Below are positions 7,797 through 26,404 of a DNA stretch of 31,155 nucleotides, one piece after another. The translations under genes were made by a program, and so were the position numbers. The stretch's first letter is position 1; the number at the start of each line of letters is the position of its first letter. The notes under the pieces were generated by a model. That model had not been told where the DNA came from and searched no databases. It worked only from the letters and a program-made list of their open reading frames with translations. Location: assembly GCA_030587475.2 (NCBI GenBank), contig JAUQYZ020000031.1, forward strand, positions 1-31,155, given 5' to 3'. This stretch comes from Candidatus Sigynarchaeum calidifontis. GTDB taxonomy: Archaea; Asgardarchaeota; Lokiarchaeia; Sigyniarchaeales; Sigyniarchaeaceae.

Positions 7797-7802
7797 GCGT
7801 CA

Positions 7803-8936: not shown

Positions 8937-8946
8937 GATTTGCCCC

Positions 8947-9408
8947 TCATCCTCCTGACCCCGACCGCAGCCGCTTTTCTTCCGCGTACATGGGATGGGC
9001 ACCGACCATCAATGCCATGATGATCTTCAAGGCGGTGGCCATCGATCCTTTCAACTTCACTTTTCCGGTCAGCACGTATTTGAACACTAGCTTACAAAGG
9101 CCTGACACATTAGCTTTCGTCCGGATCACGTCGACGATGAGGGGCACGATGGCATCTCGCGGGACGTTAAACACGATTTGAGCTGCCGCATGGTCAGACT
9201 TGTTCATGAATGGAAGGATGTGGCAGTTCGAGACCTTCCAGGTGACGGCTCGATCCCCGAGAGACGGGAACACGGCCAACACTTCAGCGCCGTCGATCTT
9301 GGCGAGAGCTTGCATTTGTTGTTTCTGTCCAAAGATATCCGTCAAGAGCTGGAACAGCCGGCCGAGGCTCGACACCCTTGCCTCGTCGCGAAGGTCTTGG
9401 TCATTCAA
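8947..9408 (-). CDS. SCP2 (sterol carrier protein 2)-like lipid/acyl-CoA-binding protein
   Basis: C-terminal LTGKVKLKGSMATALKI matches the SCP2 signature. Start uncertain: TTG 9408 (fits a TATA-like element at ~9432-9439) or ATG 9495. Confidence 0.6.
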   Translation of the reverse strand: MNDQDLRDEARVSSLGRLFQLLTDIFGQKQQMQALAKIDGAEVLAVFPSLGDRAVTWKVSNCHILPFMNKSDHAAAQIVFNVPRDAIVPLIVDVIRTKANVSGLCKLVFKYVLTGKVKLKGSMATALKIIMALMVGAHPMYAEEKRLRSGSGG

Positions 9409-9502: not shown

Positions 9503-9906
9503 GAATAAACGAGCCCCCGGACATCCTCGGCCTCGGTATCCGGAACCTTCTCAGCTACCGCGAGGATCGCGGGGCGTTGGAACCCCTCGTTGCCAACTGG
9601 GAAAAGACCGTCGTGATCGAGCTCGTCGACATGTACGCCGTTTCGATGCACTTTCATAAAAAAGACGTGCAAATCGAGCCTGGCATTCCGGCGAAATTTG
9701 ACATTATGATTTCGATGTCACTTGAAACGCTCATCGCCCTCGCAAACGGCAAGACCGGTCCCGTGCGCGCGTTCTTGCAAGGGCGATTGAAGGTGAAAAA
9801 ACTGTGGCGCGTGGGGACATTGCTCAAGTTCATGAAGATCATCATCCCGGCGCTGAAAATCGCCGGGGAGCGTGGAGCGCATCATGGAAAAACGCACCGA
9901 TCGTGA
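9496..9906 (+). CDS. SCP2 sterol-binding domain protein
   Basis: DIMISMSLETLIALANGKTGPVRAFLQGRLKVK, a typical SCP2 C-terminal half. Confidence 0.8.
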   Translation: MTRINEPPDILGLGIRNLLSYREDRGALEPLVANWEKTVVIELVDMYAVSMHFHKKDVQIEPGIPAKFDIMISMSLETLIALANGKTGPVRAFLQGRLKVKKLWRVGTLLKFMKIIIPALKIAGERGAHHGKTHRS

Positions 9907-11341
9907 GAGATCCGGGATCAAGGAGCGCCTCGTTACCATCTTCGGCCCGGAGAACGTTTCCGATAAAGTGCACGACCTGTTTCCCTACTCGTACGACGCG
10001 ACGGAATGCGAGCCTCACATGCCCGATTTCGTGGTTCTGCCAAAGAACGTTGACCAGGTCGTGGCGGTCGTCAAGCTGGCAAGTGAAACCGGGGTGCCTC
10101 TCGTTCCCTACATCTCCGGCAACAACATCGGCGGGTTGACCATCCCGGAGCGGGGCGGGATCATCGTCGACTTCTCCAAGCGCATGAACAGGATCCTCCA
10201 CGTCCACGAGTCGCACATGTATGCGATCTTGGAACCCGGGGTTACTTTCGGGCAGTTGAAAAGTTATCTCGACGATCACCACCCGGGCTTGCGGTATTCT
10301 TACCCCTTCGCACCGCCATTCAGTGGTGTCGTCGGGAACGCGCTTCTCTCGGGAATGAACAACATGTCTTGCGCGCATGGGTCGATGGGCGACTGGATCA
10401 ATGGGGTCGAGGTGGTCCTCCACGACGGGACGGTCGCACGCGTCGGGTCGTGTTTTCTCAGCAAGGATTTCCGCGTGGATAACTGGTATTCACGCTACCC
10501 CATGCCAGATATGCTGGGTCTGTTCGTGAATTGGCAGGGCATGACGGGCATCGTGACCAAGTGCGCCGTCCAGCTGTGGCCGCGGCGGCCCATCGAAACA
10601 GCATATCTCGGTATCGCCTACGGGCACGAGACCACGGCGGAATTCATGCGCGAGCTAGCGCGAACCGAAGTGATCGATGATATATCGGCGGTCTCCGTGG
10701 AGGTGGCGAAGATGTCGCTCGGCATCCCCACGCCGATCAAGACTCCCGAGGAGCCCGATTTCGCCCTCCTCATCCCCGTGTCGGCACTGACACGGAAACA
10801 CCTGGAAGCGAAGTACGAGATCATGCAAGACGTCCTCGCAAAAGTGAAACAAAAGCACGGTAACAAGGTCTTCCTCACGGGCTTCGATACTTTCGCCTCA
10901 CTGGTGGGCGAGGGAACCAGGGTCTTTTACGACTTGCCGGGCGTGATCACTCCACTCGTGGAATATTCTGGCTTGACGTGGTTCGGATCATACGCGCCGC
11001 CGGAGCATTTAGGGGTGCTTTTCGAGAAAGCAACCGCTATATTCCACAAGTACAATTTCCCGGCATTTGTATATTCCAAGATCATGAAGTCGGGGCATTA
11101 TGGCATATTCCGTCCCATCATCCGCTACAAGAAAGACTCCGAGGAGGACCGCGCGAGGAAGGCGATGGAGGAATTCTTCGACCTCGGCGTGAGCTATGGA
11201 TGCATCCCGTACAAGACCCCCGTGTGGATGTGCAACAAGCTCAAGGAACACATCGACCCGAACTGGCTCGCGATGTTCAAGAAGGTCAAGGGGTTCATGG
11301 ACCCGAAAGGCATTTTCAACCCGGGGAGGTGGGGGATCTAG
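9884..11341 (+). CDS. FAD-linked oxidoreductase, VAO/PCMH/GlcD superfamily
   Basis: PDFVVLP...VPLVP..SGNN.GG, YAILEPGVTFGQL, GVEVVLHDG, GMTGIVTK, DPKGIFNPG. Confidence 0.9.
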   Translation: MEKRTDRERSGIKERLVTIFGPENVSDKVHDLFPYSYDATECEPHMPDFVVLPKNVDQVVAVVKLASETGVPLVPYISGNNIGGLTIPERGGIIVDFSKRMNRILHVHESHMYAILEPGVTFGQLKSYLDDHHPGLRYSYPFAPPFSGVVGNALLSGMNNMSCAHGSMGDWINGVEVVLHDGTVARVGSCFLSKDFRVDNWYSRYPMPDMLGLFVNWQGMTGIVTKCAVQLWPRRPIETAYLGIAYGHETTAEFMRELARTEVIDDISAVSVEVAKMSLGIPTPIKTPEEPDFALLIPVSALTRKHLEAKYEIMQDVLAKVKQKHGNKVFLTGFDTFASLVGEGTRVFYDLPGVITPLVEYSGLTWFGSYAPPEHLGVLFEKATAIFHKYNFPAFVYSKIMKSGHYGIFRPIIRYKKDSEEDRARKAMEEFFDLGVSYGCIPYKTPVWMCNKLKEHIDPNWLAMFKKVKGFMDPKGIFNPGRWGI

Positions 11342-12532
11342 ATGGAGCTCGCCGATATCTCGCGGCTATCCAAGCCGTCCCAAGATTCCTTGAAGGTGGT
11401 CCTGGACCGGTGCATCCGCTGCAACACTTGCAAGTATGCATACAAGAATTTCACCCCAAGCTGCCCGTCCGGCGAATATTTCAAGTTCGAGTCCTACTGG
11501 GCATCGGGGCGCATCCGCATCGCCCGCGGCTTGCTCACGCGCCGGCTCGAGTGGACAGAAGACATCTTGCACCCGATCTTTGCTTGCACGACGTGTGGCG
11601 GTTGCAAAGACAGCTGCCAGGCACCCCACCAGGATCAAATCGTTGATATCATCGAGTCGCTGCGGGAGTTCGCGGTCAAGTCCGTTGGCGCGCCCGCGAA
11701 GCAAGCAAAACTTGCACCCGCCGTCGCCAAGCACTTCAATCCCTACGGCGAACCCCATTCGGACAATGCCGAGATCCGGGTCAAGTACAACTTGCGCCCG
11801 GAGGCAAGCGTGGTCTATTTCATCGGCTGCACGTCCAACTACCGCCAGCGGCAGCTGCGCGATGCAACGCTGTCGGTTCTCAAGAAGCTGGGGATCGATT
11901 TCACGGTCGTGGACGAGCGGTGCTGCGGGTCGCCGTTGCTGAGAACGGGGCAGATCGACCTCGTGCCCGACCTCATGCGACACAATGCCGAAGCCATGGC
12001 CGCGACGGGGGCCAAAACAATCATCACATCATGCTCGGGATGCTATCGCACGATGAAAAAGGACTTTGCCAAGTTCGGCGTGGACTTGCACGTGGATATC
12101 CTCCATTCCTCCGAATTCATCAATCAAAAACTGACGCCGGCGGTTTTAAAAACCATCCGGGAGAAAGCGGCAAAAAATAGCCTGCAGAAAACCGTGACCT
12201 ATCACGATCCATGTCACCTCGGGCATCACATGGGATTATTCGAAGCGCCGAGGGAATTGCTCCAAAAAATTCCCGGCATCACACTCGTCGAGATGCCACG
12301 CAACCGTACATCATCATGGTGCTGCGGGGCTGGCGGCGGTGTCAAGATCGGGTATCCGGAGTGGGCAGTGCAGATCGCCGGCGAGCGCGTGGCGGAAGCC
12401 CGCCAGACCGGGGCCGGTACCCTCGTTTCCACGTGCCCCTTCTGCAAGACCAACTTGTCAGACGCGAACGCAAAGGCTGGTACCGCTCTCGACGTCGTTG
12501 ACCTGGTCGAGCTGCTCGACCGCGTGCTCTGA
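11342..12532 (+). CDS. HdrD/GlcF-like Fe-S oxidoreductase (ferredoxin domain + two CCG domains)
   Basis: CIRCNTC...CP, CTTCGGCKDSC, FIGC, RCCGSP, SCSGC, YHDPCHL, WCCGAGGG, CPFC. Starts immediately after the previous stop. Confidence 0.9.
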   Translation: MELADISRLSKPSQDSLKVVLDRCIRCNTCKYAYKNFTPSCPSGEYFKFESYWASGRIRIARGLLTRRLEWTEDILHPIFACTTCGGCKDSCQAPHQDQIVDIIESLREFAVKSVGAPAKQAKLAPAVAKHFNPYGEPHSDNAEIRVKYNLRPEASVVYFIGCTSNYRQRQLRDATLSVLKKLGIDFTVVDERCCGSPLLRTGQIDLVPDLMRHNAEAMAATGAKTIITSCSGCYRTMKKDFAKFGVDLHVDILHSSEFINQKLTPAVLKTIREKAAKNSLQKTVTYHDPCHLGHHMGLFEAPRELLQKIPGITLVEMPRNRTSSWCCGAGGGVKIGYPEWAVQIAGERVAEARQTGAGTLVSTCPFCKTNLSDANAKAGTALDVVDLVELLDRVL

Positions 12533-12571: not shown

Positions 12572-13339
12572 ATGACCGCGCGCATGGAAGATTTCCGGCG
12601 ACTCGTCGAACAAGCGAAATTGGAGAGCAAGGAATATTCTATATGGCAAGTGGCCTCTGAGATGACAGAAAATAGAACTAGTTTGCCGATGCGGGTAGGC
12701 CAAGGGGCTTGGAGCGGCGTGCTCCTGGAGGACGATGTCCGGATCCATTTCGGGGATTACGCAACGCCGTCGACTGCCTTGCTCCTCGTGGCACCGGGCG
12801 CGGCGGCGCTGCACGATGGTCGCATCACGCTGGTCGGGCCAGACATCCCCAGATTGACGGAAGGCGTGGTGCCTTTTGCACTCGTCATCGTGGCGTGGGG
12901 CGCCGATCTGACGCCTGATCGCGTCAAGGAACTGCGCCGGGGCCTCCAGGTGACCGACCAGATCGAAGGGTTCGCGCAGTGTTCCATCCTCCGGGAGATC
13001 AGGTTTACATTGAGCAAGGCTCTGTTCAATAAAGGAGTATCATTCCGCCACCTCGGCCACGCGTTCATCCATCTCTTCAAGGAACAATTCGCCCGGTTCC
13101 TTCAGGCAGTGGAGGTGGTGTTCCTCACCACCAGCCCGACCACGATCAACGCCCTGAAAAAAATCACCCAAACGATTAGATCTGACATGGCCGCGACCTT
13201 GCGGGCAAAGGTAGCACAGAAAGTCAAGTCCCGTGAGGATTGCGAGTTCGAGTGGGAATGCACGGATTGCGAGTACCAGCGCATCTGCGAGGAGCTGCGG
13301 GACATCATCCGATTGAGAAAGGATTTAACCGCGAACTAG
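12572..13339 (+). CDS. Truncated acetyl-CoA synthase beta (CdhC/AcsB) domain homologue with Cys-rich C-terminus
   Basis: DGRITLVGPDI...PFALV...IEGF...LSKALFNKGVSFRHLG...AVEVVFLT resemble the non-catalytic CdhC domain. No A-cluster domain. Tail CEFEWECTDCEYQRIC. Confidence 0.65.
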   Translation: MTARMEDFRRLVEQAKLESKEYSIWQVASEMTENRTSLPMRVGQGAWSGVLLEDDVRIHFGDYATPSTALLLVAPGAAALHDGRITLVGPDIPRLTEGVVPFALVIVAWGADLTPDRVKELRRGLQVTDQIEGFAQCSILREIRFTLSKALFNKGVSFRHLGHAFIHLFKEQFARFLQAVEVVFLTTSPTTINALKKITQTIRSDMAATLRAKVAQKVKSREDCEFEWECTDCEYQRICEELRDIIRLRKDLTAN

Positions 13340-13353
13340 AACGTGACAATGAC

Positions 13354-14157
13354 ATGGCCGACATGGTGCATGCCCAGCACGACAGCCCACGAAAGTTCCG
13401 GGTCTTCGCCATCACCGGCAAGGGGGGCGTGGGAAAGACGACGTTCGCGTTCCTTTTCGCCCGCGCCTTGATCGCTCGTGGAAGGCACCCGCTGCTCATC
13501 GATGCAGATCCTGCACTCAGCCACCTGGCACGCGCCCTTGGAATCACGCCGGAACACACGATAGAGAGCATCCGGGCCGAGTTGATCGGTGTTGCAGCGC
13601 GCGGGAACGCGGATGAGAAGGCGGTGACCGCCCGCGAGATCGGATCGATCGTCGCCCGGAGTGTCGTGAAAGGCGCCGATTACGATCTCCTGGTCATGGG
13701 CCAGCCGGCCAGCGCGGGATGTTTTTGCCCCAGTAACACGCTCTTGCGTTCCGTCATCAGGGAACTGGCGGGGCAATACGATTCTGTCATCATCGATTGC
13801 GAGGCGGGGCTGGAACAGATCCACCGGCAAGTCATCGGGACGGTCGAATTTATCATCATCGTGACAGACCCATCCGCTCGTAGTTTCGCCACTGCCGAGG
13901 CGATCCTTGCATCAGCCCGGCGCTTCACCCAGTACAAGCGAGCCGGGCTCGTGGTGAACAAGGTGATTCAAGGCGCGGCGGTAAAAATACCGGCTTGGGT
14001 GGAAAAGCATGGCGTTATCATCCTTGGCGAGCTGCCAGATGTGCCGGCGCTGCGAGAGCATGAATCGCTGGACTCATGCTTGACCGAGGGATTTCAATTG
14101 CCCGTGTTAGAACCCGCCGTGGCATCAATTGCCGAGAAGATCGATGGCGGGACCTAG
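13354..14157 (+). CDS. cooC: CooC/AcsF-type nickel-insertion ATPase
   Basis: GKGGVGKTT, IDADP, GCFCP, DCEAGLEQ, VVNKV. Confidence 0.85.
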   Translation: MADMVHAQHDSPRKFRVFAITGKGGVGKTTFAFLFARALIARGRHPLLIDADPALSHLARALGITPEHTIESIRAELIGVAARGNADEKAVTAREIGSIVARSVVKGADYDLLVMGQPASAGCFCPSNTLLRSVIRELAGQYDSVIIDCEAGLEQIHRQVIGTVEFIIIVTDPSARSFATAEAILASARRFTQYKRAGLVVNKVIQGAAVKIPAWVEKHGVIILGELPDVPALREHESLDSCLTEGFQLPVLEPAVASIAEKIDGGT

Positions 14158-15513: not shown

Positions 15514-15987
15514 TCACGGGATGATGACCGTCGGGTCTTCCTTGATGCGATCGAGCACCATCTGCGTCTTGACCTCCTCCACGCCGGGCAAGTTGCGCAG
15601 GCGCTCGATGAGCGCCATGGCATGCTCGTGACCCAGGCACTTGGCCATGACGAAGACGGGATAATCGCCGGTCGTGATGTAGGCGAACTTTATCTCGGGC
15701 ATATTGTTGATCTGTTCCTTGATCCCGGCGAGGGATAGCGTGGAGTTGAGGCGCAGCGACGCGAGCAGTGCTTCTCGATAGCCCATCTTGCTGCAATCGA
15801 GCAATGCATGGTAACCACGGACGAACGACTTGTTGAGCTTGTCCAATCTTGCACGCACTGCTGTTTGGGACAACCCCGTTATTTCAGATAACGCTGCGAT
15901 GGTGATCTTCGCGTCCTTCTGGATTTCGGTCAAGATCGTCTTGTCCTTGTCATCCAGTTCCTCGTAAGAGCAGTTGTTCTTGTCCAT
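15514..15987 (-). CDS. Lrp/AsnC family transcriptional regulator
   Basis: LDDKDKTILTEIQKDAK...GLSQTAVRARL HTH and TTGDYP RAM domain. Divergent from the tusA-hdr cluster. Confidence 0.92.
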   Translation of the reverse strand: MDKNNCSYEELDDKDKTILTEIQKDAKITIAALSEITGLSQTAVRARLDKLNKSFVRGYHALLDCSKMGYREALLASLRLNSTLSLAGIKEQINNMPEIKFAYITTGDYPVFVMAKCLGHEHAMALIERLRNLPGVEEVKTQMVLDRIKEDPTVIIP

Positions 15988-16089
15988 CGTTCCTCATCCA
16001 TGTTTCAAGGTCAATAGAGCCTTCATCAGAGCTAGCGAAAATCACCACGGATCGGCGCTTGAATAGCGCATATGAATATCAGCGTGGAA

Positions 16090-16160
16090 AGGTTTATATA
16101 GTTTGCGCTAAGAAATGACCTGGTTTTAGTGGATTAACCACCACATTTAAATACTGGTCT
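16090..16160. promoter_or_regulatory. Divergent lrp/tusA promoter region with a candidate operator
   Basis: TTTATATA 16093-16100 (TATATAAA on - strand), TTTAAATA 16146-16153, inverted repeat TGGTT-N10-AACCA 16121-16140 between them. Confidence 0.5.
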
Positions 16161-16220
16161 CGCGACTTTAACTATGGAACCTCTATGAAATGGCGAAAAA
16201 ACCGAAGAAAATGACCCATC

Positions 16221-16448
16221 ATGGCGGATTTGAAACTCGACACGCTTGGGAAGAAATGTCCCATGCCCGTCCTATTGGCGAAGAAAGAAATGACGAAAAT
16301 GGCAGCTGGCGACGTGTTGACCGTCACGGCTGACGATGCAGGGGCGCTGAAGGATATTCCAGCCCTCGTGAACAAATCACCTGGCTTTGCAATCTCGGAA
16401 TCGAAGCAAGAAGGCAATATCATCACGATCAAGATCAAGAAGGCTTGA
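16221..16448 (+). CDS. tusA: Sulfur carrier TusA/SirA family
   Basis: LDTLGKKCPMP (CPxP) and VTADD...DIP. Confidence 0.93.
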   Translation: MADLKLDTLGKKCPMPVLLAKKEMTKMAAGDVLTVTADDAGALKDIPALVNKSPGFAISESKQEGNIITIKIKKA

Positions 16449-16467
16449 AATTCGCGGGGGATATCAC

Positions 16468-16836
16468 ATGGCAAAGTTCACGTTCGTGGTCTGCACGGAG
16501 CCGTACAAGTACCAGGGCATCGAGTCGATGCTCAACCTGGCCGAGGCCGTGTTGAAAAAAGGCCACGAGATCGGCATGATCTTCCTGTATGGCAGCGGCG
16601 TGATGAACATGAAAAAAGACATCAGCACGGGCAGCGACACGAGGAACATCCCCGAGCGCCTCCAAGCCCTCGTGACGGCGAATAAGATCAAGCTCGTCGG
16701 TTGCACGACGTGGATCGGCTTGTGCGGGCTCGAGCAACGTGATTTCATCGATGGTGGCGCCGAGGAGGGGCTCGGTGACCTGGCGACGGCGGCTCGGGCA
16801 TCGGACAAGGTCGTGTTCTTCGGAGGCGGGAACTGA
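16468..16836 (+). CDS. dsrE: DsrE/TusD family sulfur relay protein
   Basis: EPY, KGHEI..IFLYGSGV, active-site region LVGCTTWIGLCGL, GLGDL...SDKVVFF. Confidence 0.88.
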   Translation: MAKFTFVVCTEPYKYQGIESMLNLAEAVLKKGHEIGMIFLYGSGVMNMKKDISTGSDTRNIPERLQALVTANKIKLVGCTTWIGLCGLEQRDFIDGGAEEGLGDLATAARASDKVVFFGGGN

Positions 16837-16848
16837 GGTGGCGTGAAC

Positions 16849-17217
16849 ATGGTCGAATCGATCATCATCCTCTCGGATCGCAGCCCAGTGGGCTCCAACT
16901 CGGCAGTCGAGGCGATCCGCATGGGTGCGGGATTAACCGCGCTCGGCGACACGATACCGACGAAGGTCGTCCTCTCCGGGGATGCGGTGCTCTTGATGGC
17001 TAAAGACGCGGATCCTACCGCCGTGAAACAAGACACGATCAATAGCGTCATGGAAATGGCCGATCTCAGCGACCTGGAGATCTACGTCGTGAAGGAGGCG
17101 CTTGGGGACGCGGGCTTGCAGCAAGACGACCTGCGCTCCTACGCGAAGCTCAAGATCGTGAGCCAGGCCGAGCTCTCGTCGATGGTCGCTGGCGCGGCCA
17201 CGACGTTCCGGTTGTGA
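16849..17217 (+). CDS. dsrF: DsrF/TusC family sulfur relay protein
   Basis: SPVGSNSAVEAIR, GDAV, IYVVKEAL...GL. GAGGTG 8 nt upstream of the ATG. Confidence 0.85.
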   Translation: MVESIIILSDRSPVGSNSAVEAIRMGAGLTALGDTIPTKVVLSGDAVLLMAKDADPTAVKQDTINSVMEMADLSDLEIYVVKEALGDAGLQQDDLRSYAKLKIVSQAELSSMVAGAATTFRL

Positions 17218-17222
17218 GGCGA

Positions 17223-17576
17223 ATGCACGTGGCGACGACGAAAAAACACGACATCGTGTACCTGGTCGGGCACAGTGCCCGGCAAGAATGCCAGCTAGAA
17301 AATATCATTCCGATCGTAGACTCGCAGTATGAATCCGGCAAGGATGTAGGTATCGTGCTAATGCAAGATGGCGTGATCGGCACGTCGAAGCGCGGCACCG
17401 TGCCAGACACGTTCAACTATTTCACCGAGATGGACATCCCGGTGCATGTTCTCGCGCCGGACTTGAAAGCCCGGGGTATCAACCCTGGCCAGTTGATCGA
17501 CAAGGTCGACGTGATCACGTACGAGGATCTCGTCGACATCCTGGTCGAATCGAGCAAGATCGTATCAATATTGTAA
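17223..17576 (+). CDS. dsrH: DsrH/TusB family sulfur relay protein
   Basis: VLMQDGV, VLAPDLKARGI, ITYEDLVDI. Start at 17223 or GTG 17229. Confidence 0.88.
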   Translation: MHVATTKKHDIVYLVGHSARQECQLENIIPIVDSQYESGKDVGIVLMQDGVIGTSKRGTVPDTFNYFTEMDIPVHVLAPDLKARGINPGQLIDKVDVITYEDLVDILVESSKIVSIL

Positions 17577-17627
17577 TCAGAATCAGGACTAGTGATATAA
17601 AGACAGCAAACAACCGAGTGAAAAACC

Positions 17628-18071
17628 ATGGCAGTGAAAAAACTGAACTTCATCATCGCCAACAACGACTTCGAGACGTTCAACAAGATGCTCATCCTCG
17701 GCACGACCGCCGCGGCCATGGACATCGAGGTGAACTTTTTCTTCACGTTCTGGGGGTTGTACTTGATCAAGAAAGGGTACAAGCCGAAGGTGAGCGGGAT
17801 GGGCAGCTTGATGGCAGGCATGGCCACATCCATGTTCACCAAGCTTATGAAGGAGTCGGGCATCGAGGATCCCATCAAGATGCTCAAGGAGGCGCACGAC
17901 AGCGGCAAGCTCAAGCTTTACCCGTGCTCCATGACCCTGGACATGCTCGCCAAGGCACCCATGAGCTACAAGTTGAAGAAAGAGCAGCTGCTCGATTTCG
18001 TCGAGGCACCTGTTGGCGCGGCCTCGTTCCTGGAAATGTGCGACGGGGCTGATAGCATCATCCACATGTGA
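17628..18071 (+). CDS. DsrE2-type (DrsE_2) sulfurtransferase
   Basis: TTAAAMD.EV.FFFTFWGL, YPCSMTLDM, VGAASFLE. Confidence 0.88.
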   Translation: MAVKKLNFIIANNDFETFNKMLILGTTAAAMDIEVNFFFTFWGLYLIKKGYKPKVSGMGSLMAGMATSMFTKLMKESGIEDPIKMLKEAHDSGKLKLYPCSMTLDMLAKAPMSYKLKKEQLLDFVEAPVGAASFLEMCDGADSIIHM

Positions 18072-18074
18072 GTT

Positions 18075-18102
18075 TGGGGTAACGTTTTTCCCCATTTTTA
18101 TT
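18075..18102 (+). terminator. Intra-operon hairpin plus U-rich tract
   Basis: TGGGG(18075-79)...CCCCA(18090-94) followed by TTTTTATT, between the sulfur-carrier genes and hdrC. Confidence 0.4.
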
Positions 18103-18194
18103 CCATTATCTCGATCATCCAAGTTCCCCGAATATCACGATCAACAACAATTAACGGCGCATGTCATCGTGCGCGAATCCCGGGTAGAAATGAC

Positions 18195-18785
18195 ATGAGT
18201 GAAACCGTCCCAGTAAAAAAACAATTCAAGACCGATGCAGAATACGACGAGAATTTCTTCAAGGACATCGAGAGGCGATCCAACATCTGGTCTTGCATCC
18301 AATGCGGCACGTGCACCGCGTCGTGCGAGTCTGGCAGGTGGACTGCACTCAAGACGCGCAATATCATCCGGAAAGTCGTGCTCGGAGACCTTTCCGTTCT
18401 CGATGACCCCGACATCTGGCTCTGCACGACATGTTACAACTGCTTGGAACGATGTCCAAGAGATGTGCGACCGACCGACGTGATCATCGAGCTGCGAAAC
18501 ATGGCCGCCAAGCGCGGCAACATGCATCCCGCGCACAAGAAGACGGTCGGTTTCTTGAAGGAAACAGGCCACGCGGTGCCTATTAACGATCAAGTCCGGA
18601 AACAACGGAAGGACCTCGGGCTCGACGAGCTGCCCCCGACGCTTTTCAAATTCAAAATGAATGGTGATGACAAGGTGCTCAAGAATATTCACGCCAAGCT
18701 CTTCAACGTCGCCAACATCGAGAAGGCATCAGGGCTTGCAAAACTTGAAGGCAAGTCAAAGGATAAAAAGTCGGAGGAAAAATGA
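18195..18785 (+). CDS. hdrC: Heterodisulfide reductase subunit C
   Basis: CIQCGTCTASCESG...IWLCTTCYNCLERCPR.V.PTDVII.LRN...ETGHAVP, methanogen type. Confidence 0.95.
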   Translation: MSETVPVKKQFKTDAEYDENFFKDIERRSNIWSCIQCGTCTASCESGRWTALKTRNIIRKVVLGDLSVLDDPDIWLCTTCYNCLERCPRDVRPTDVIIELRNMAAKRGNMHPAHKKTVGFLKETGHAVPINDQVRKQRKDLGLDELPPTLFKFKMNGDDKVLKNIHAKLFNVANIEKASGLAKLEGKSKDKKSEEK

Positions 18786-18786
18786 A

Positions 18787-19686
18787 ATGGTGAAGGAAAA
18801 AACGTTTGCATTCTTCCTTGGATGCATCGCGCCCAACCGGTACCCGCAGCTCGAGAAGGCAACGAAGTTTGTAATGGAAAAAATCGGGTATACCTTGCTC
18901 GATATGGAACAAGCAAGCTGCTGTCCTGCCCCGGGGGTTTTCAAATCATTCGACAAGTACGACTGGATGGTCGCGGCGGCACGCAATATCGTGATCGCTG
19001 AACGTCTGGATGCCAATCTCGTTACAATATGTAACGGCTGCTTCGGAACGCTACAAGAAGTTAACAAGCATCTAAAAGAGGATCCAAAAGCCAAGGAATA
19101 CGTGAATGCGCGCCTCAAGGAGATCGGTGATTACGAGTTCAAGGGCACGATCATGGTTCGTCATGCCGCCGAGGTACTCGCCTATGAGATAGGCCCAGAG
19201 GGCGTCGCCCCGTTCATTACCCGCAAGCTCAACGCCCGTGCAGTTATCCATTATGGATGTCACTTCTTGAAACCCACTCGCATCAGGGGGTTGGACAGTG
19301 CCGAGAAGCCGACCATGCTCGAGAACTTCGCAACCATTCTTGGTATCGAGTCGCTCGAATTCGAGAACAAGTACACGTGCTGCGGGGCTGGGGGCGGTAT
19401 CAAGGCGGCCCACGCGGTTCCGTCGATGAAAATTTTCGGGGAGAAGATGAAGGATATCGACAAGGTCAAGCCTGATTTCATCCTCGATATCTGTCCCTTC
19501 TGCCACTTGCAGTTCGAGACGGGCCAGGATTATCTAAATAAAAATGAAGAATGCAATTACGATTATCCCGTGCTTCACCTGTCCCAGGTCGTCGCCTGGT
19601 GCATGGGCATGGATCAAAAGTTCGTCGGGCTCCAGTACCAGCAGATGGGTCGCAATTATATCTTCCCCGAAAAGGAGGTCGCTTGA
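18787..19686 (+). CDS. hdrB: Heterodisulfide reductase subunit B
   Basis: [51 protein letters not shown]: all non-cubane cluster ligand motifs present. Confidence 0.96.
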
Positions 19687-19690
19687 TACA

Positions 19691-21709
19691 ATGCCGGAAC
19701 ATGTGAAAAAAGAGAAGGATGTTACTGCCAAGCCCGTGACTGAGCCTAAAATCGGGGTTTTCGTCTGCGAGTGTGGCGGGAACATCTCCGGCAAGGTGCG
19801 GGTGCAAGACGTAGCGGCCTTCGCAAAAACCCTCCCCAACGTCGAGGTGGCCGAATATAACTTCTCCATGTGCAGCTCCGTCGGGGTTGATATGATCAAG
19901 AAAGCCATCGAAGAAAAAGGGATAGACCGTACCGTGGTTTGTTCGTGTTCCAAGGCCCAGCACGGACCGACGTTTGCAAGAGCCATCGAGGAAGGTGGCC
20001 TTAACAAGCACATGCACGAGCAAGTGAACATCCGCGAGTGGGACTCGTGGGTAACGAAAGGTAAGGACGAGGCGACCGAGAAAGCAAAAAAAGCCCTCGA
20101 AGCGGGCGTGAACCGTTCCCGGAAGCTCGAGCCCGTCGAGACCCGGCAGATCCCCGTCACGAAAGCGGCTTTAGTCATAGGCGGGGGTATCGCGGGCTGC
20201 CGTGCAGCCATGGACCTGGCAAACCTGGGCGTTCCCGTGTATCTGGTCGAGCAATCTCCAACCATTGGTGGACACATGGCCCAGTTATTCAAGACATTTC
20301 CCACGAACGAGTGCCCTCAATGCAGTATCTCCCCTCTTACAAACGGGGTGGCCAATAACAAGAATATCACGCTCTTCACGAATGCATCAATCAAGAAAGT
20401 CGAAGGTTCCATCGGCAAGTTCGGTGTCGACATCGAGATAAAGCCACGGTACGTGGAATCGAATTGCACGAGCTGTGGCAAGTGTAGTGATGCCTGCCCG
20501 GTCGAGGTGCCTTCGGAATGGGACAGCGGTATGACGTACCGCAAGGCCATCTATAAACCCTTCCCGCAAGCAATTCCCGCGACATTCATTCGCGACAAGA
20601 ACGCGTGTATCGAGTGCAACACGTGCGTGAACGTGTGTCCCGTCGATGCTGTCAATTTCAAGCAAAAAAAGCAAGAGGTGCAAGTCGAGGTTGGTACCAT
20701 CGTCGTTGCCGTTGGTTATGACGAGTACGATCCAACTGAAATCGAAGCGTATCATCATGGCGACAAGGGATACGAGGACGTGATCACGCAGCTCAAGCTC
20801 GAGCGCATGATGACCCCTGTTTCCATCACGGGTGGCGAAATCTTGCGCCCGAGCGATGGCCGCGTGCCGAAGAAGCTCGTCATGATTCAATGCGTCGGCA
20901 GCCGGAACGAACAGGTCGGTAACAAGTATTGCACGGGCGTGTGTTGCATGTTCGCGCTAAAAAATGCCCAGATTATCAAGGAAAAGCATCCCGAAATGGA
21001 CATCACGATCTGTTACATCGACATCCGTACGCCGGGGCTCCAATACGAGGAATTTTACAAGCGTGCCCAGACTCTCGGCGTTCGGTTCATCCGCGGCCGC
21101 CCGTCCGAGATCGCTCGTGACCCCGCTAGCGGGCAACTACACGTTATTGTCGAGGACACGCTCTCCATGACTCCCCTCGCGTTGCAAGCAGATATGGTCG
21201 TCCTTTCGGCCGCCATGGTTCCCCCGAAAAGTATCGGAACACTTGGGTCAAGCTTGCACGTGCTACGCAGTGCCGAGGGATTCATCAAGGAGTATCACAT
21301 CAAGATGAACCCGACATCATCGAGCAAGGGCGGCATCTTTATCGCAGGTGCTATTCAAGGTCCAAAAGATATCACGCAATCGGTTGCCCAGGCTGGAAGT
21401 GCAGCGGCTCTCGCCGCAGCACCGCTGGTCAAGGGATATATCGAGAAGGACATGCTAGTTCCCGTTATCGACGAGCAATTATGCGTTCGATGCAATGCGT
21501 GCGTGGCCGTGTGCCCTGTCTCGGCACTGGAACGGGCAGAGGATGGTAGGATCAAGGTCAACGACGTGGCATGCCGGTCTTGTGGCTTGTGCATGCCCGC
21601 GTGTCCAACGACGGCCATTCAGCTCAGGAACTTCCGCGACGACCAGATCCACGACGAGATCATTGCCCTTGCCGATAATCCAAAGGAAGGAGGTCATGTA
21701 CATGGTTGA
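19691..21709 (+). CDS. hdrA: Heterodisulfide reductase subunit A (672 aa)
   Basis: [37 protein letters not shown], inserted 2[4Fe-4S] ferredoxin, [25 protein letters not shown]-terminal ferredoxin. GGAGGT upstream. Confidence 0.96.
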
Positions 21710-22154
21710 ATCCAAAACCCGTGGTTGCAGCGTGCCAGCCGATCGTCATCAGCACAACATCGTCGTCTTCGCGTGCAACGAGTGCGGTCAAGGTGCATTC
21801 AACACGGCCGGCGTCGCCCGCATGGCTTACGACGCTTCGGTCACGATCGTCCCTGTCCAGTGTTCGGGCATGATCTCGCCAACCATGATCATGGACGCGC
21901 TGGCAGCGGGTGCTGACGCCGTCGGTTGCATTGGTTGTTGCTTCGGTGCGTGCCATTTCGTCAACGGGAATTTCCTCAACATGCACCGGGTCAAGCTCAT
22001 GAAAAAGCTATTTCTCGAAATGGGCTACAGCGACCAGTTCATCAATCATTACACCGCACGAGCGGCCGAAGGTGAAACCGCGGTTGGCGATGTCGAGGAC
22101 ATCCTCGAGCGCCTCGAGAAGGCGGAGAAACAAGGAGGGACGTTCAAACAATGA
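21702..22154 (+). CDS. mvhD: MvhD/FlpD [2Fe-2S] adaptor subunit
   Basis: FACNEC, VQCSG, GADAV...[23 protein letters not shown] 7 nt upstream; overlaps the hdrA stop. Confidence 0.92.
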
Positions 22155-23386
22155 AGATCGGCATCTTCCAGTTCAACGGCTGCGACAAGTGCTTCGCCGA
22201 GTCGTTGCTCCTCGGTGGTGGACACGAGGTCGAGAGGGTAACGAAACCTGCATCATGGCAAGGTGGCAAATTGGACGTGGCCGTGATCACGGGCTACTTG
22301 CTCCCGAAGGACAAGCCTGCCCTCGAAAAGATCGCGAACATCGCTGCAAAGATCGTTGCATTCGGCAGCTGTACCACGACTGGTGGTGTATTTGGTCTCG
22401 CATACCAGCGTGGAAACGATATACACCCGCTATCCACGATCATCTCCAAGGAAGTGCTCAACGTCGATGGCTGCCTCGGGGAAGTCGAGGAACTCGAGGC
22501 GGCATTGTGGGGGAAGGTTCCCGACGGGAAGACCAAGCTCTGCGATGCTTGCCCGCGCCATTCTACTTGCCAATACCTCGACGATGTGGTGCGTCAGCTG
22601 GAGATTGAGGACGGAGACGATGTCTGCTTCAATAATAAGGGTTTTCTCTGCAGCGGCTACGTGGCCCGATCTTGCAAGGAGTTTTGCGTGGGATCAGGCA
22701 CGCCATGCCGTGGGTGCAAACCATCAATCAAGGATTCGTCGTTCCGCATGCTCGGCATGTTCGCGACCCTCATGGCAAACGTGGAAGTTGCGACCGAAGC
22801 AACGGGCAAGGGTGGTACCGACAAGCTCGCTGACGAGCCGGATGCAGTCACGCGCAGCGTGCCGGACGTTTCCGGCAGCTTCTTCCGGTTCACGCTCCCG
22901 GCGAGTCGCTTGCCCCTCGGCAAGTCATCTTCGACCGGGGACGTTCTCTCCGACGTGTTCGTCGGCCGACCCCTGGAGGAACTCCCCCTCATAGCGGGTT
23001 TGCTCGGTGGCATGAAATCCATCTCGTTCGTGCTGGACGTGGTGGAAGCATACGAGAATGGCACCGGCATGGTGGTGTCGGAGAAGACCATGACATTACG
23101 CAAGGAGCTGCGGGCGCTGGAAAAAGGATTGCAAGAAGCGATCGCCAAGGGCGACAAAAATGGATATAAAACCGCAACGGTGGCTATCCGGAAGATCGCG
23201 GGTAACATGAACCTATCGAACGTGTTCTTCGGCGGGTTCAAGGTGCCGGTCCAGGGCCATGATGATATCAACGCCTACAAGTCCCACGTCTTCGAAATAA
23301 AGGCCGGAAAATATGCCAGCGGCTCGGTTGCGTACGAGATCGATTCGAGCGGCATGGTCACAGCGTTCACTCGCAAGGAGGCATGA
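22151..23386 (+). CDS. mvhG: MvhG-like hydrogenase small subunit fused to a Cys-less remnant of a [NiFe] large subunit
   Basis: GCDKC, FGSC...GG, DGC, CDACP, VCF...LCSG, SCKEFC, PCRGC, DVSGSFFRFTLP, followed by a ~150-aa MvhA-like extension. ATGA overlap with mvhD. Confidence 0.8.
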   Translation: MKIGIFQFNGCDKCFAESLLLGGGHEVERVTKPASWQGGKLDVAVITGYLLPKDKPALEKIANIAAKIVAFGSCTTTGGVFGLAYQRGNDIHPLSTIISKEVLNVDGCLGEVEELEAALWGKVPDGKTKLCDACPRHSTCQYLDDVVRQLEIEDGDDVCFNNKGFLCSGYVARSCKEFCVGSGTPCRGCKPSIKDSSFRMLGMFATLMANVEVATEATGKGGTDKLADEPDAVTRSVPDVSGSFFRFTLPASRLPLGKSSSTGDVLSDVFVGRPLEELPLIAGLLGGMKSISFVLDVVEAYENGTGMVVSEKTMTLRKELRALEKGLQEAIAKGDKNGYKTATVAIRKIAGNMNLSNVFFGGFKVPVQGHDDINAYKSHVFEIKAGKYASGSVAYEIDSSGMVTAFTRKEA

Positions 23387-23393
23387 TCAAGTC

Positions 23394-24887
23394 ATGAGCT
23401 TTGAATTACTCAAGAACGAAGTGATCGACATCGGGCTTTGCCAGGGTTGCGCTAAGTGCGCCGGAACATGCAAGCACATCGAAATGGTCGATTTAAAACC
23501 CCATCTTAAGGACAAATGCATCCTCGAGGAAAAAGGTATCGATTGCGGGTTGTGTTATAGAACGTGCCCGCAAGTCATCCAGAAGCCATTCACAGAAATC
23601 AAGAAAGAACCACTCGAGGTCTTCTCGCTGCGAGCCAAGGACATGGCCGCGGGAAGCAAGGCTGGCGGGGCCGTGACGGCCCTAGCGAAAATGATGCTCG
23701 GCGACGGCGATGTCTCGCACATGATCTTGGTTCGTGATGGCGATGGGAAGCCCGTCACCGACGTGATTACCGATCCAGGCAAGATCAGCACCTATGCCGG
23801 GGTCACGCTCGGGCGGTCGGGGATCCTCGAGAAGCTCATCAAGACTCTTGGCGAGGAAAACAAGGGTGTCGGCATCGTCGCCGTGCCATGCGAGATCCGC
23901 GGCACGGAAGAGGTCGAGAGGCGAATGGGTGTTGAGATTGCCAAGATCGCCTTGTTCTGCAACTCGCAGATGCGGTCGGACAGGACAGATCTCGGCGAAA
24001 CGGTATCCCCGTGCGCGACGAATTGCCCCGCGGGCGTGAATGCAAGAGATTACACGGCCCTCATCCGCAGCGGCCGGTTCCAGGAGGCCATCGATCTCAT
24101 CCGGGAGGATAACCCGCTCCCCAGCGTTTGTGGTCGCATATGCACCCACGAATGCGAGCATGGCTGCACGCTAATGGGTGCCACGACCCCGATAGCCGTG
24201 CGCGAGCTCAAAAAATTCGTATCGGAATGGGAGATGAAAAATGCACGCAAGATCGACGAGCTGAAGGCGAGACCCCGGCCAAGCGGTAAAAAAGTGGCCG
24301 TCATCGGCGGTGGCCCGGCGGGCCTCACGTGCGCGTATTACCTCGCGCGCCTTGGTTATCGCCCTACGATCTTCGAGAAAACGGCCAAGCTCGGCGGCAT
24401 GTTGAAGGCTGGCGTGCCGTCGTTCCGGCTGCCCGACGAGGTCCTGGATTACGATGTCGACACTATCAAAGCTCTCGGCGTGGACGTGAAGCTCGAGACC
24501 CCGATAGGCAAGGATCTCACTTTCGATGCCTTAAAGGCGCAAGGATTTGAAGCATTTTTCATCGGCATCGGCCAATGGCAGCCCCGGACGCTCAAGACCC
24601 CCGGCGAGGATCTTCCCGGTGTCTACACGGCCATCGACTTCTTGCTCAACCGCAAGTACCGGTACTGGGAAAAGAAGGACGAGTTCAAGGACAAGACCCT
24701 GTACATACTTGGCGGTGGTCCCGTTGGTGTTGACGTTGCCCAGACTGCTTTGCGTCTTGGTGCCAAGAAAGTGTACCTGGCCGAGATCCGCACGGAAAAC
24801 GAGCTCAAGATCGTCGTCGACGATATCCCGGAGAACGAGCTGAAGTACATGGAATATTTATACTCGACCAACACGGTCAAGTTCTAA
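23394..24887 (+). CDS. N-terminal part of an FrhB/FdhB-GltD(NfnB-like) chimeric flavoprotein, ending at a premature in-frame TAA
   Basis: EVIDIGLCQGCAKC, CGLCYRTCP, GGAVTAL, VPCE, ALFC (FrhB), then PCATNCPAG, NPLPSVCGRIC..ECE..C, GGGPAG, GGML..GVP.FRLP, GGGPVGVD (GltD). Confidence 0.85.
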   Translation: MSFELLKNEVIDIGLCQGCAKCAGTCKHIEMVDLKPHLKDKCILEEKGIDCGLCYRTCPQVIQKPFTEIKKEPLEVFSLRAKDMAAGSKAGGAVTALAKMMLGDGDVSHMILVRDGDGKPVTDVITDPGKISTYAGVTLGRSGILEKLIKTLGEENKGVGIVAVPCEIRGTEEVERRMGVEIAKIALFCNSQMRSDRTDLGETVSPCATNCPAGVNARDYTALIRSGRFQEAIDLIREDNPLPSVCGRICTHECEHGCTLMGATTPIAVRELKKFVSEWEMKNARKIDELKARPRPSGKKVAVIGGGPAGLTCAYYLARLGYRPTIFEKTAKLGGMLKAGVPSFRLPDEVLDYDVDTIKALGVDVKLETPIGKDLTFDALKAQGFEAFFIGIGQWQPRTLKTPGEDLPGVYTAIDFLLNRKYRYWEKKDEFKDKTLYILGGGPVGVDVAQTALRLGAKKVYLAEIRTENELKIVVDDIPENELKYMEYLYSTNTVKF

Positions 24888-25844
24888 AAAAACGCCGATG
24901 ATACCCTCAAAGTTGTTATCCACAACGTTGGCTCTAAACCTCCATATCAGAAGATCGATGGAACGGATCGCGAGATCGTGGTCGACGCGGCGGTCATTGC
25001 CATCGGCCAGGCAACGGATTGGGCGGAGATCGACGCGGCCACCGGCGGCCAGATCAAGAAGGATCGCGGCAAGGTGGTCATCGACGAGCTCACGTTTGAG
25101 ACTAGCATGCCTGGCGTGTTTGCAGGCGGCGACATCGTCGTGCGCGGCAAGGCCGTCGCGATCGCGGCGGTCGCCCACGGGCGCGAGGCAGCGGTGTCCA
25201 TCGACAGGTACTTGCGGGGCGTGGATCTCCGCGAGGGGCGGCTCAAGAAGGACCGGAGTTTTTTCACCAAGCCGTTGATGCCCCCGAAACGTTATTCCGT
25301 CAAGGTTGACACGATGAAGGGGCAGACCGAAGATCTCTACCTGGACTGGAATGAAATCGACGGGTTGTTCACTGCAGAAGCGGCAATTGGTGAAGCCAAG
25401 CGTTGTTTGGCCTGCAACAACTTTTGCTCCCATTGCCAAGATTATTCGGGGGTCCTTGCTGATATCAGTGCAGGCGAGGTCGGATCGGATCCTGGTTACA
25501 CGACGGTGCTGGTTTGGACCGAGAAAGGTCGAAAACTCGTGCGCAAGGCATTGGATAGAGGATTGTTCGACCAAGGTAAGATCAACATGGACGCGGTGAA
25601 CGCGCACATCGTTCGGAAGTCCACGAGGGAGATGTGGAGTTACGAGAAACCCTTGCGCCAGAAGGTGCGCGAGTTTGTCGTCGACAAGGGCCCTGCAACC
25701 GTGAGCATGATTAGCGCCGCCATTGGTGCCAAACCCATCGACGTTCGTTACGAGGTATTGAGGTTGGTACAGGAACGCCAGCTCTCGATGAAACTGATCG
25801 AGGGCAAAGCCGAGCCAGAGTTTGATATTTATTGCGAAGAATGA
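24888..25844 (+). CDS. In-frame continuation of the same gene: GltD C-terminus, FrhB C-terminus and probable winged-helix tail
   Basis: Same frame as the previous ORF directly after the TAA: KNADD...IDGTDREIVVDAAVIAIGQ, TSMPGVFAGGD, EAKRCLAC, CSHCQDYSGVLADISAGEVGS.PGYTTVLVWTEKG. Confidence 0.85.
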   Translation, partial: KNADDTLKVVIHNVGSKPPYQKIDGTDREIVVDAAVIAIGQATDWAEIDAATGGQIKKDRGKVVIDELTFETSMPGVFAGGDIVVRGKAVAIAAVAHGREAAVSIDRYLRGVDLREGRLKKDRSFFTKPLMPPKRYSVKVDTMKGQTEDLYLDWNEIDGLFTAEAAIGEAKRCLACNNFCSHCQDYSGVLADISAGEVGSDPGYTTVLVWTEKGRKLVRKALDRGLFDQGKINMDAVNAHIVRKSTREMWSYEKPLRQKVREFVVDKGPATVSMISAAIGAKPIDVRYEVLRLVQERQLSMKLIEGKAEPEFDIYCEE

Positions 25845-25897
25845 AACACTATTGGTGTTGGAAAGGCAATATGGAAAAAAAGCAGGAGGAAACAAGG

Positions 25898-26134
25898 ATG
25901 AACTACGATGCAGAATTGGATTGCCGCGGGTTAGTGTGTCCCGTCCCCGCGCTGAAGACGAAAAAGGAATTGGCCAAGATGGCACCGGGCAAGGTGCTCC
26001 GGGTCGTAACAGATTACAAGCCCGCTAGTGAATCCGTTCCACGCGATCTGGCCAAGACTCCCAACAAATTGCTTGGCATAGAGTACAACGAAGACGACGG
26101 TGTCTGGTATATCTTCTTCCAGGCTGTCAAATGA
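25898..26134 (+). CDS. tusA: Second TusA/SirA family sulfur carrier
   Basis: LDCRGLVCPVP. GGAGG 8 nt upstream of ATG 25898. Confidence 0.92.
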   Translation: MNYDAELDCRGLVCPVPALKTKKELAKMAPGKVLRVVTDYKPASESVPRDLAKTPNKLLGIEYNEDDGVWYIFFQAVK

Positions 26135-26137
26135 TCC

Positions 26138-26164
26138 TTAATTTTTTTTCAAGTTTTTTTCTTT
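26138..26164 (+). terminator. Archaeal oligo-T terminator closing the tusA-hdr cluster
   Basis: Two long T runs immediately after the tusA stop. Confidence 0.65.
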
Positions 26165-26404
26165 GCTGGTTTCAGCGTTACTATCGACGTGATTGATAAC
26201 CCCCAGAATTCTCTTATAAGTTCAAATCAAAGAGCTGGTAGACAACCTAGTCGAGACATACCAAAGATGAGAAATTCTGAACCGCCTGGGCAATTAAGGC
26301 CCGAGATAATCGATTTGTTGAGAACGTGCACGAAAAAGTCCAAACGTGCATCTTTTTGGTTCGCGTGCATGAATCGAGATAAAAACGTCAACATAAAGGT
26401 GCTC

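Follow-up and report, generated by a model that had tools for sequence, protein, structure and literature searches.

A conserved gene cluster joining a hydrogenase-derived HdrABC-MvhD reductase to TusA and DsrE sulfur carriers in Promethearchaeota

What does the heterodisulfide reductase HdrABC reduce in organisms that lack coenzymes M and B? To our knowledge this question has long been open, and it bears on metabolic models of the Asgard archaea and on hydrogen/sulfur syntrophy at the origin of eukaryotes. A concrete candidate for the substrate, carrier-bound sulfur, is suggested by a gene cluster at positions 16221-26134 of a 31,155-nucleotide stretch of Candidatus Sigynarchaeum calidifontis (assembly GCA_030587475.2, contig JAUQYZ020000031.1), referred to below as the window. 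Based on the open reading frame listing and Pfam, the cluster comprises 12 same-strand genes in the order tusA-dsrE-dsrF-dsrH-dsrE2-hdrC-hdrB-hdrA-mvhD-mvhG*-frhB::gltD-tusA. An earlier reading of this DNA, made from the sequence alone, counted 11 genes although its own list sums to 12; each gene that it named is confirmed by Pfam. The best explanation of the cluster, to which we give about an even chance, is a flavoprotein-fed, hydrogenase-derived HdrABC complex that cleaves a sulfur-sulfur (S-S) bond presented by the co-encoded carriers. The genes and adjoining features are listed below, with starts refined by conserved amino termini and GGAGG-like sites.

15514-15987 (-): Lrp/AsnC-family regulator, divergent upstream of tusA1; Pfam HTH_AsnC-type and AsnC_trans_reg
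15988-16220 (unstranded): divergent intergenic region; two A/T-rich TATA-like boxes near 16093 and 16146, read from the sequence, putative promoters
16221-16448 (+): tusA1, 75 residues; Pfam TusA 1.8e-18; single Cys in GKKCPMP (CPxP)
16468-16836 (+): dsrE (TusD-like), 122 residues; Pfam DsrE; active-site Cys in VGCTTW
16849-17217 (+): dsrF (TusC-like); Pfam DsrE family and alignment
17223-17576 (+): dsrH (TusB-like); Pfam DsrH 3.6e-12
17628-18071 (+): dsrE2-like; Pfam DrsE_2 1.7e-19, COG2210; conserved Cys in YPC(S/Q)MT
18072-18194 (unstranded): dsrE2-hdrC gap, 123 nt; two T5 runs; possible border of two transcription units
18195-18785 (+): hdrC; Pfam Fer4 families; two [4Fe-4S] motifs
18787-19686 (+): hdrB; two Pfam CCG domains; 10 Cys for two non-cubane clusters
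19691-21709 (+): hdrA, 672 residues; flavin adenine dinucleotide (FAD) domain and N-terminal, inserted and C-terminal ferredoxin domains; Cys form, no selenocysteine (Sec)
21696-22154 (+): mvhD, [2Fe-2S] adaptor; Pfam FlpD 1.4e-30; 14-nt overlap with hdrA
22151-23386 (+): mvhG*, 411 residues; Pfam Oxidored_q6 (N-terminal domain of [NiFe] small subunits)
23394-25844 (+): frhB::gltD; FrhB_N, Fer4_20, Pyr_redox_2 and FrhB_C; in-frame TAA at 24885-24887
25898-26134 (+): tusA2, 78 residues; Pfam TusA 1.6e-20; CPVP and a second Cys 5 residues upstream
26142-26167 (+): archaeal-type terminator candidate; T8 and T7 runs after tusA2

Linkage of the carriers to the reductase

The same gene order is found in 68 of 68 Promethearchaeota loci from species-representative genomes, as far as the contigs reach, including those of the cultured Promethearchaeum syntrophicum MK-D1 and Ca. 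Lokiarchaeum ossiferum. All relatives retrieved with the MvhG* protein belong to the Promethearchaeota/Lokiarchaeia, and the full order also occurs in 12 relatives of two other families, where amino acid identity is 26-73% and lowest in DsrH. Order is thus conserved far more than expected by chance. Of 400 sampled genomes of the phylum, 79 encode MvhG*, 71 of them in the taxonomic order of the window and 7 in a second family. A DsrE homologue is present in 71 of the 79 MvhG*-positive genomes and in 52 of the 321 MvhG*-negative ones, counts that come from related and not independent genomes.

The more distant MvhG* homologues include a rearranged variant of the cluster: in the second Asgard family and in two metagenome contigs the order is hdrCBA-mvhD-mvhG*-frhB-tusA-dsrEFH, where frhB is plain (no GltD) and the carrier genes lie downstream of it. 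That the TusA/DsrE linkage outlasts a change of both gene order and input module is the strongest argument for a functional tie. In every locus, moreover, tusA2 lies directly 3' of the flavoprotein gene, inside the hdr unit. Lack of linkage in relatives, which the sequence-only reading had named as a finding that would refute its proposal, is clearly not what the 68 loci, the 12 relatives and the rearranged variants show.

Whether the 12 genes form one operon is less certain. The intergenic gaps are, in order, 19, 12, 5, 51, 123, 1, 4, -14, -4, 7 and 53 nt. The lrp gene keeps its divergent position in most relatives and lies between dsrE2 and hdrC in the MK-D1 clade, which includes L. ossiferum. 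Given this placement and the 123-nt gap with its two T5 runs, two transcription units, one for the carriers and one for the hdr genes, appear as likely as a single operon. Of the earlier operon claim, the tight same-strand row and the closing T runs stand, but a single operon is not favored over two units. Scans of the locus for bacterial promoters and terminators gave chance level only and are irrelevant for archaea.

The source genome is a Lokiarchaeales metagenome-assembled genome (MAG) of 4.99 Mb in 269 contigs, 89% complete, with a GC content of 54%. The GC content of the operon equals that of the host genome, so there is no sign of recent transfer from low-GC relatives.

Several genomes show further arrangements around the cluster. 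MK-D1 (loci L015/L025, NZ_CP042905 at ~652-656 kb) has a second, divergent hdrC-hdrB-hdrA set, of 38-46% identity, head-to-head with tusA1, so that an Hdr operon lies on either side of the carrier genes there. Two DsrE copies are present in many genomes, and a second dsrEFH triplet lies on the opposite strand a few kb away, at 32-47% identity, in loci L017 (16401-17501), L018 (4637-5720), L058, L062 and L063. In L036, L056 and L086, a deletion or frameshift, and not a TGA, interrupts hdrA or mvhG*, which may reflect MAG error or occasional decay; a Sec reading of the split HdrA in L036 and L056 was rejected on these grounds. Family f16 has a single MvhG*-positive genome (locus L100, contig G113:C137) and is otherwise without the cluster and without SepSecS. 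The 10-kb contig that carries the cluster, with 50-70% identity to Lokiarchaeales clusters, is likely mis-binned or laterally transferred.

The reductase and its electron input

The reductase core is closely related to the solved methanogen enzymes. HdrB matches 5ODC_B over its full length (E 3.9e-87) with all ten CCG cysteines kept, and HdrA, the long bifurcating form, matches 9SFI_A and 5ODC_A at about E 1e-194, whereas the sHdrA structure 6TJR aligns only to HdrA residues 286-562. HdrC retains 8 of 8 cluster cysteines in all 52 of 52 relatives, and the cluster cysteines of MvhD and HdrA are conserved in the alignment of relatives. In the window, Pfam detects a single hdrCB pair and no lbpA; there is no GCV_H gene, and the three GcvH-like genes of the genome are all on other contigs. 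The earlier assignment to the methanogen type, and not to sHdr, agrees with these matches.

The hydrogenase part of the complex is represented by MvhG*. Residues 1-260 of this protein correspond in alignment to the entire MvhG subunit of the Mvh-Hdr complex (9SW2_E, 5ODC_E), C-terminal tail included, and contain 13 conserved cysteines, with ligands for three Fe-S clusters as in the MvhG small subunit. The remaining ~150 residues (~261-411) are free of cysteine. A profile of this extension matches residues ~43-107 of several [NiFe] large subunits (best 6QGT_A, residues 46-107, E 8e-5), and an hhalign comparison with this genome's own MvhA, weak at 39% probability, aligns the RICGLC nickel motif to LLGGMK. 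Judged by these alignments, MvhG* joins an entire MvhG to a nickel-less remnant derived from the N terminus of a [NiFe] large subunit. The family is narrow, since a search of 1.84 billion representatives yields about 20 clusters at E < 1e-30; an AlphaFold model built from 9 sequences was poor (predicted local distance difference test score 54) and was not used. Pfam reveals no MvhA large subunit with nickel-binding CxxC motifs in the cluster, only the cysteine-free remnant, in line with the hydrogenase-free input claimed earlier. Two complete [NiFe] large subunits are encoded on other contigs.

The flavoprotein FrhB::GltD combines a ferredoxin domain and FrhB_N, an inserted GltD/NfnB-like module, FrhB_C and a winged-helix tail. 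The insert contains two [4Fe-4S] motifs, an FAD site and an NAD(P)H fold, and its best matches are NfnA/NfnI-type chains and GltD. FrhB_N and FrhB_C, which the insert separates, are both detected and belong to a predicted F420-binding family. The wiring suggested in the sequence-only reading, from FrhB::GltD through MvhG* and MvhD to HdrA, fits the homology to the solved MvhAGD-HdrABC complex and to NfnB/GltD.

The winged-helix tail (window 25527-25844, +) is present in all variants. A penultimate or near-terminal cysteine is found in the tail of 52 of 57 Lokiarchaeales orthologues and is absent from the MK-D1 clade and the second-family variants. We considered the tail as a DsrC/TusE-like arm and rejected this, since Foldseek gives only generic ArsR/MarR/Z-alpha winged helices and the cysteine is not universal. 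In one closed genome (locus L099, G011:C1 at ~3.068-3.070 Mb) the flavoprotein is reduced to 149 residues, consisting of the N-terminal ferredoxin part and the winged-helix tail only. The tail thus seems to be what is retained alongside MvhG*.

The window's own frhB::gltD is interrupted by the TAA at 24885-24887 (context TTC TAA AAA AAC), which splits Pyr_redox_2 in two. Full-length relatives are uninterrupted (55/55), with Thr (48) or Ser (7) at this column and open frames of about 818-839 residues where the contig allows, and the next in-frame start in the window lies 30 codons 3' of the stop. The TAA is either a nonsense mutation or an assembly error, confined to this genome, and the split gene that the sequence-only reading noted is no feature of the system. 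This genome's copy of the complex may be impaired by the stop in its input flavoprotein. Recoding of the TAA, as Sec or otherwise, was rejected in view of the Thr/Ser in relatives and because known Asgard recoding concerns TGA and TAG (PMC9723677, PMC11227280). A search of the encoding contigs returned no record of a truncated frhB::gltD product.

The sulfur carriers

The cysteines expected to carry sulfur are conserved in most of the carrier proteins. Both TusA copies have the CPxP motif, and Cys13 of TusA1 is kept in 41 of 41 relatives, as are the active-site cysteine of DsrE (the Cys78 equivalent; 42/42) and Cys100 of DsrE2 (49/49). In DsrF of this genome a Thr replaces the Cys kept in 42 of 43 relatives, and DsrH has no conserved cysteine across relatives. 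TusA2 has a second cysteine, located 4 residues upstream of CPxP in 52 of 61 relatives and 5 upstream in this genome; its role as a universal dithiol was rejected, as it is absent from most second-family variants. No thiolation enzyme of the MnmA, ThiI or MoaD type is encoded in or beside the cluster.

Searches of the genome, which is 89% complete as noted above, gave no match to McrA, ComA, DsrC or a NIR_SIR-type sulfite reductase. In the absence of a DsrC/TusE acceptor, DsrEFH is without its usual partner, and the lack of McrA and ComA, hence of a system for the heterodisulfide of coenzymes M and B (CoM-S-S-CoB), supports a substrate other than this heterodisulfide. The genome does encode an ATP sulfurylase (Sat; contig C125). 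A YedE/YeeE-like transporter fragment adjoins another tusA elsewhere in the genome (G000:C29:33210-33876, -), a pair resembling the TsuA/TsuB thiosulfate-uptake proteins.

Proposed function and its alternatives

From gene content, cofactor ligands, homologies and linkage we infer a substrate, a direction, an electron donor and bifurcation as follows. The cluster would encode a cytoplasmic, methanogen-type HdrABC-MvhD complex with a rebuilt hydrogenase arm, in which MvhG is kept and fused to a nickel-less MvhA stub, and in which the input is an FrhB flavoprotein, interrupted in Lokiarchaeales by a GltD/NfnB module for NAD(P)H. Electrons would flow from NAD(P)H, or from reduced coenzyme F420 (F420H2), to FrhB::GltD, through the three MvhG* clusters and the [2Fe-2S] cluster of MvhD to the FAD of HdrA, and from there to HdrC/HdrB and, probably, ferredoxin. 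HdrB would then cleave an S-S bond presented by the two TusA proteins, DsrEFH and DsrE2: a cysteine persulfide, a polysulfide, a thiosulfonate, or a disulfide that forms on a carrier once sulfide has left. Sulfide would be released and the carrier thiols regenerated. In Lokiarchaeales the donor would be NAD(P)H, and with a plain FrhB it may be F420H2 or something else, a choice on which the GltD-less variants bear. Possible roles include an electron sink for fermentation, detoxification of sulfane sulfur, and reductive sulfur assimilation. The presence of expression values for the cluster genes in the MK-D1 supplementary table also counts in favor of this proposal.

The narrower idea that persulfides bound to TusA/DsrE are the physiological 'heterodisulfide' of a bifurcating Asgard HdrABC is one that we hold tentatively and think more doubtful than probable. 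If true, it would provide the first defined class of non-CoM/CoB substrates for a methanogen-type Hdr, and an H2-independent, energy-coupled way of dumping fermentation electrons onto zero-valent sulfur in the closest relatives of eukaryotes. The cluster would in addition illustrate how a flavoprotein-fed electron wire without nickel can arise from a hydrogenase. Its occurrence in the cultured strains MK-D1 and L. ossiferum makes the proposal testable there. What the window itself adds is modest, since it holds one possibly damaged copy and the idea has already been sketched in a preprint (see below).

Several observations weigh against carrier-bound sulfur as the substrate. DsrE homologues are also found in many genomes without this Hdr, and about half of the main-family genomes, as well as the three closest sampled relatives, are without the cluster, indicating an accessory function with a patchy distribution. 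HdrB is close over its full length to enzymes that reduce CoM-S-S-CoB, the carrier genes may form a separate transcription unit, and the present copy has the TAA in its input subunit. MK-D1 used no sulfate, thiosulfate or nitrate as electron acceptors; elemental sulfur (S0) was not among the acceptors listed. There is also an energetic difficulty: standard potentials lead us to estimate that bifurcation to ferredoxin, if driven by NAD(P)H, requires an acceptor at about -140 mV, and the potentials of the S0/sulfide and polysulfide couples are about -270 mV, which would make bifurcation with a persulfide marginal. The gap in potential suggests one of three things: the true substrate is a carrier disulfide with a higher potential, bifurcation does not take place, or the complex runs in reverse.

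Could the carriers be neighbors of the reductase and not its substrates? Hdr would then reduce a small-molecule or other protein disulfide, which is what is assumed of the other Asgard Hdr paralogues, and TusA/DsrE would serve in general sulfur trafficking or in maturation of the complex. CCG-domain proteins in the genome number about 18, and several Hdr sets come without carrier genes, a point to which the published MK-D1 table also speaks; HdrB resembles enzymes that reduce small molecules, DsrE homologues occur without this Hdr, and a terminator or promoter may lie between dsrE2 and hdrC. We nonetheless regard this explanation as unlikely, since tusA2 sits within the hdr unit, after the flavoprotein gene, in every locus, and since tusA and dsrE(FH) stay attached in the distant variants despite their moved position, which is hard to explain without a shared function. 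Operation in the reverse direction appears improbable as well. Sulfide or carrier thiols would in that case be oxidised at HdrB and the persulfide loaded onto TusA/DsrE for Fe-S clusters, thiolated cofactors or tRNA, with the electrons confurcated, together with those of reduced ferredoxin, onto NAD(P)+. TusA and DsrEFH/TusBCD are known classically as carriers for biosynthesis or trafficking, the sediment that forms the habitat is sulfidic, and Hdr and Nfn-type modules are, judging from their homologues, reversible in principle. Moreover, electron transfer from ferredoxin (about -450 mV) and sulfide/persulfide (about -270 mV) to NAD(P)+ (-320 mV) is slightly exergonic by our estimate, and the opposite is not. 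A biosynthetic need, however, fits poorly with a cluster absent from about half of the related genomes and lacking a MnmA, ThiI or MoaD-type thiolation enzyme in or beside it. In MK-D1, furthermore, a cysteine desulfurase is encoded elsewhere in the genome with TusA/DsrE neighbors of its own (Imachi et al. 2020), and a second source of persulfide is thus not obviously needed.

A role in selenium metabolism is highly improbable in our estimate. According to this explanation the carriers would traffic perselenide or selenotrisulfide, which Hdr would reduce to selenide for selenophosphate synthetase in archaea that use selenocysteine. SepSecS is encoded in the source genome and in nearly all of its order, and the MvhG*-carrying genomes also encode it, with the exceptions of G269 and G113. 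In Methanococcus maripaludis, selenium depletion raises TusA/TusD transcripts and lowers those of an HdrBC/DsrE-like operon (PMC11097638). But Sec use is near-universal in these lineages and the cluster is found in about half of the genomes, so that the co-occurrence has no weight beyond phylogeny; nor does the cluster contain selD, YedE or a Sec-machinery gene, and HdrA is here the Cys form. Decay of the present copy, on the other hand, is a real prospect, to which we give somewhat less than an even chance: the TAA would be a true nonsense mutation, leaving the complex in this organism without a working input module. This is suggested by the stop itself, which lies in frame in a conserved domain, 30 codons before the next start, at a site occupied by Thr/Ser in relatives, and also by the loss of the DsrF cysteine, the lack of the cluster in the three closest sampled genomes and the broken hdrA or mvhG* of a few relatives. 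Set against these are the intact state of all other genes, with every cluster ligand present, and the position of the TAA beside an A7 run, where a single-base error of the MAG consensus is equally possible.

Relation to described systems

The cluster can be viewed as an alternative-input Hdr complex joined to a carrier-coupled, Hdr-like system; it is visible in published genomes and partly anticipated. One close counterpart is the MvhAGD-HdrABC complex (5ODC, 9SW2, 9SFI). HdrA, HdrB, HdrC and MvhD match it at full length with all cluster ligands, the whole of MvhG is aligned, and the expected path from the small subunit to MvhD and HdrA is the same. In hydrogenotrophic methanogens, however, that complex has a catalytic MvhA, whereas here only the nickel-less remnant fused to MvhG is left. 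The input here would come from a flavoprotein, sulfur carriers are co-encoded, and no genes for coenzymes M and B or for Mcr were found (McrA and ComA searched).

In the alternative-input Hdr complexes, FlxABCD-HdrABC of Desulfovibrio and the F420H2-dependent HdrA2B2C2 or FrhBG-HdrA2B2C2 of Methanosarcinales and Methermicoccus (PMC8630106), HdrABC is likewise driven not by H2 but by NAD(P)H or F420H2, via an MvhD-like adaptor and FrhB-type or other flavoprotein modules. The differences here are the GltD/NfnB insert in FrhB and the wire derived from hydrogenase, MvhG with its MvhA stub. The substrates of those complexes are CoM-S-S-CoB or are thought to be DsrC, and no sulfur carriers are encoded with them.

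Carrier coupling, in turn, is shared with the sHdr-LbpA system of Hyphomicrobium, Acidithiobacillus and Sulfolobales (PMC11094781, PMC6067878). In both, a CCG-type Hdr enzyme is genetically coupled to TusA and DsrE-family transferases (the carriers there being TusA, DsrE3 and rhodanese), and the concept of sulfur delivered by carriers is common. Here, by contrast, HdrA is long and bifurcating, there is one HdrBC pair and not two, MvhD is present, the cluster has no LbpA, and the host is an anaerobic fermenter. The TusA to DsrEFH relay, with the active-site cysteine of DsrE, is the same as in DsrMK(JOP)-DsrC, TusA-DsrEFH-DsrC and E. coli TusBCD-TusE, and DsrK of DsrMK is also a CCG-domain protein that reduces protein-bound sulfur. 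Unlike these systems, the present one has a soluble HdrABC in place of the membrane-bound DsrMK, its genome yielded no DsrC/TusE or DsrAB, and DsrH lacks its conserved cysteine. CCG-domain proteins in both DsrMK-DsrC and sHdr-LbpA act on protein-bound sulfur from TusA/DsrE carriers (PMC11094781), which speaks for the explanation preferred here.

The sequence-only reading did not recognise the architecture as a described system, and this needs correction. The supplement of Imachi et al. (2020) lists the MK-D1 genes one by one (DSAG12_01139-01151), with the Hdr part under 'Heterodisulfide reductase complexes' and with expression values, though without a function. Reduction of TusA/DsrE-bound persulfides by Hdr has already been proposed in a preprint, 'An Asgard archaeon from a modern analog of ancient microbial mats' (bioRxiv 10.1101/2025.07.22.663070), whose available passages hypothesise reductive sulfur assimilation because no sulfite reductase was found. 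The source genome here, similarly, has Sat and no NIR_SIR match. Those passages assume H2 and a group 3c hydrogenase as donor and an assimilatory role, and they do not mention the hydrogenase-less MvhG*/FrhB::GltD module or its conservation. Our literature searches found no description of this module or of the conserved cluster.

Neighboring genes in the window

The window also holds genes outside the cluster. At 9872-12532 (+), a GlcD-like FAD oxidase (FAD_binding_4 and FAD-oxidase_C) is followed immediately by a 396-residue Fe-S protein with two CCG domains. This pair resembles the lactate/glycolate-oxidase type and constitutes a second CCG enzyme of the window, unrelated to the Hdr cluster. 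Next to it, at 12572-14157 (+), are a short, 255-residue CdhC-like (acetyl-CoA synthase beta) fragment, whose match spans only the first 155 profile positions, and a CooC/MinD-type ATPase. Further upstream, at 6489-9002 (-), lie two neighboring genes for 2-hydroxyglutaryl-CoA dehydratase D-components (HGD-D), which fit amino acid fermentation.

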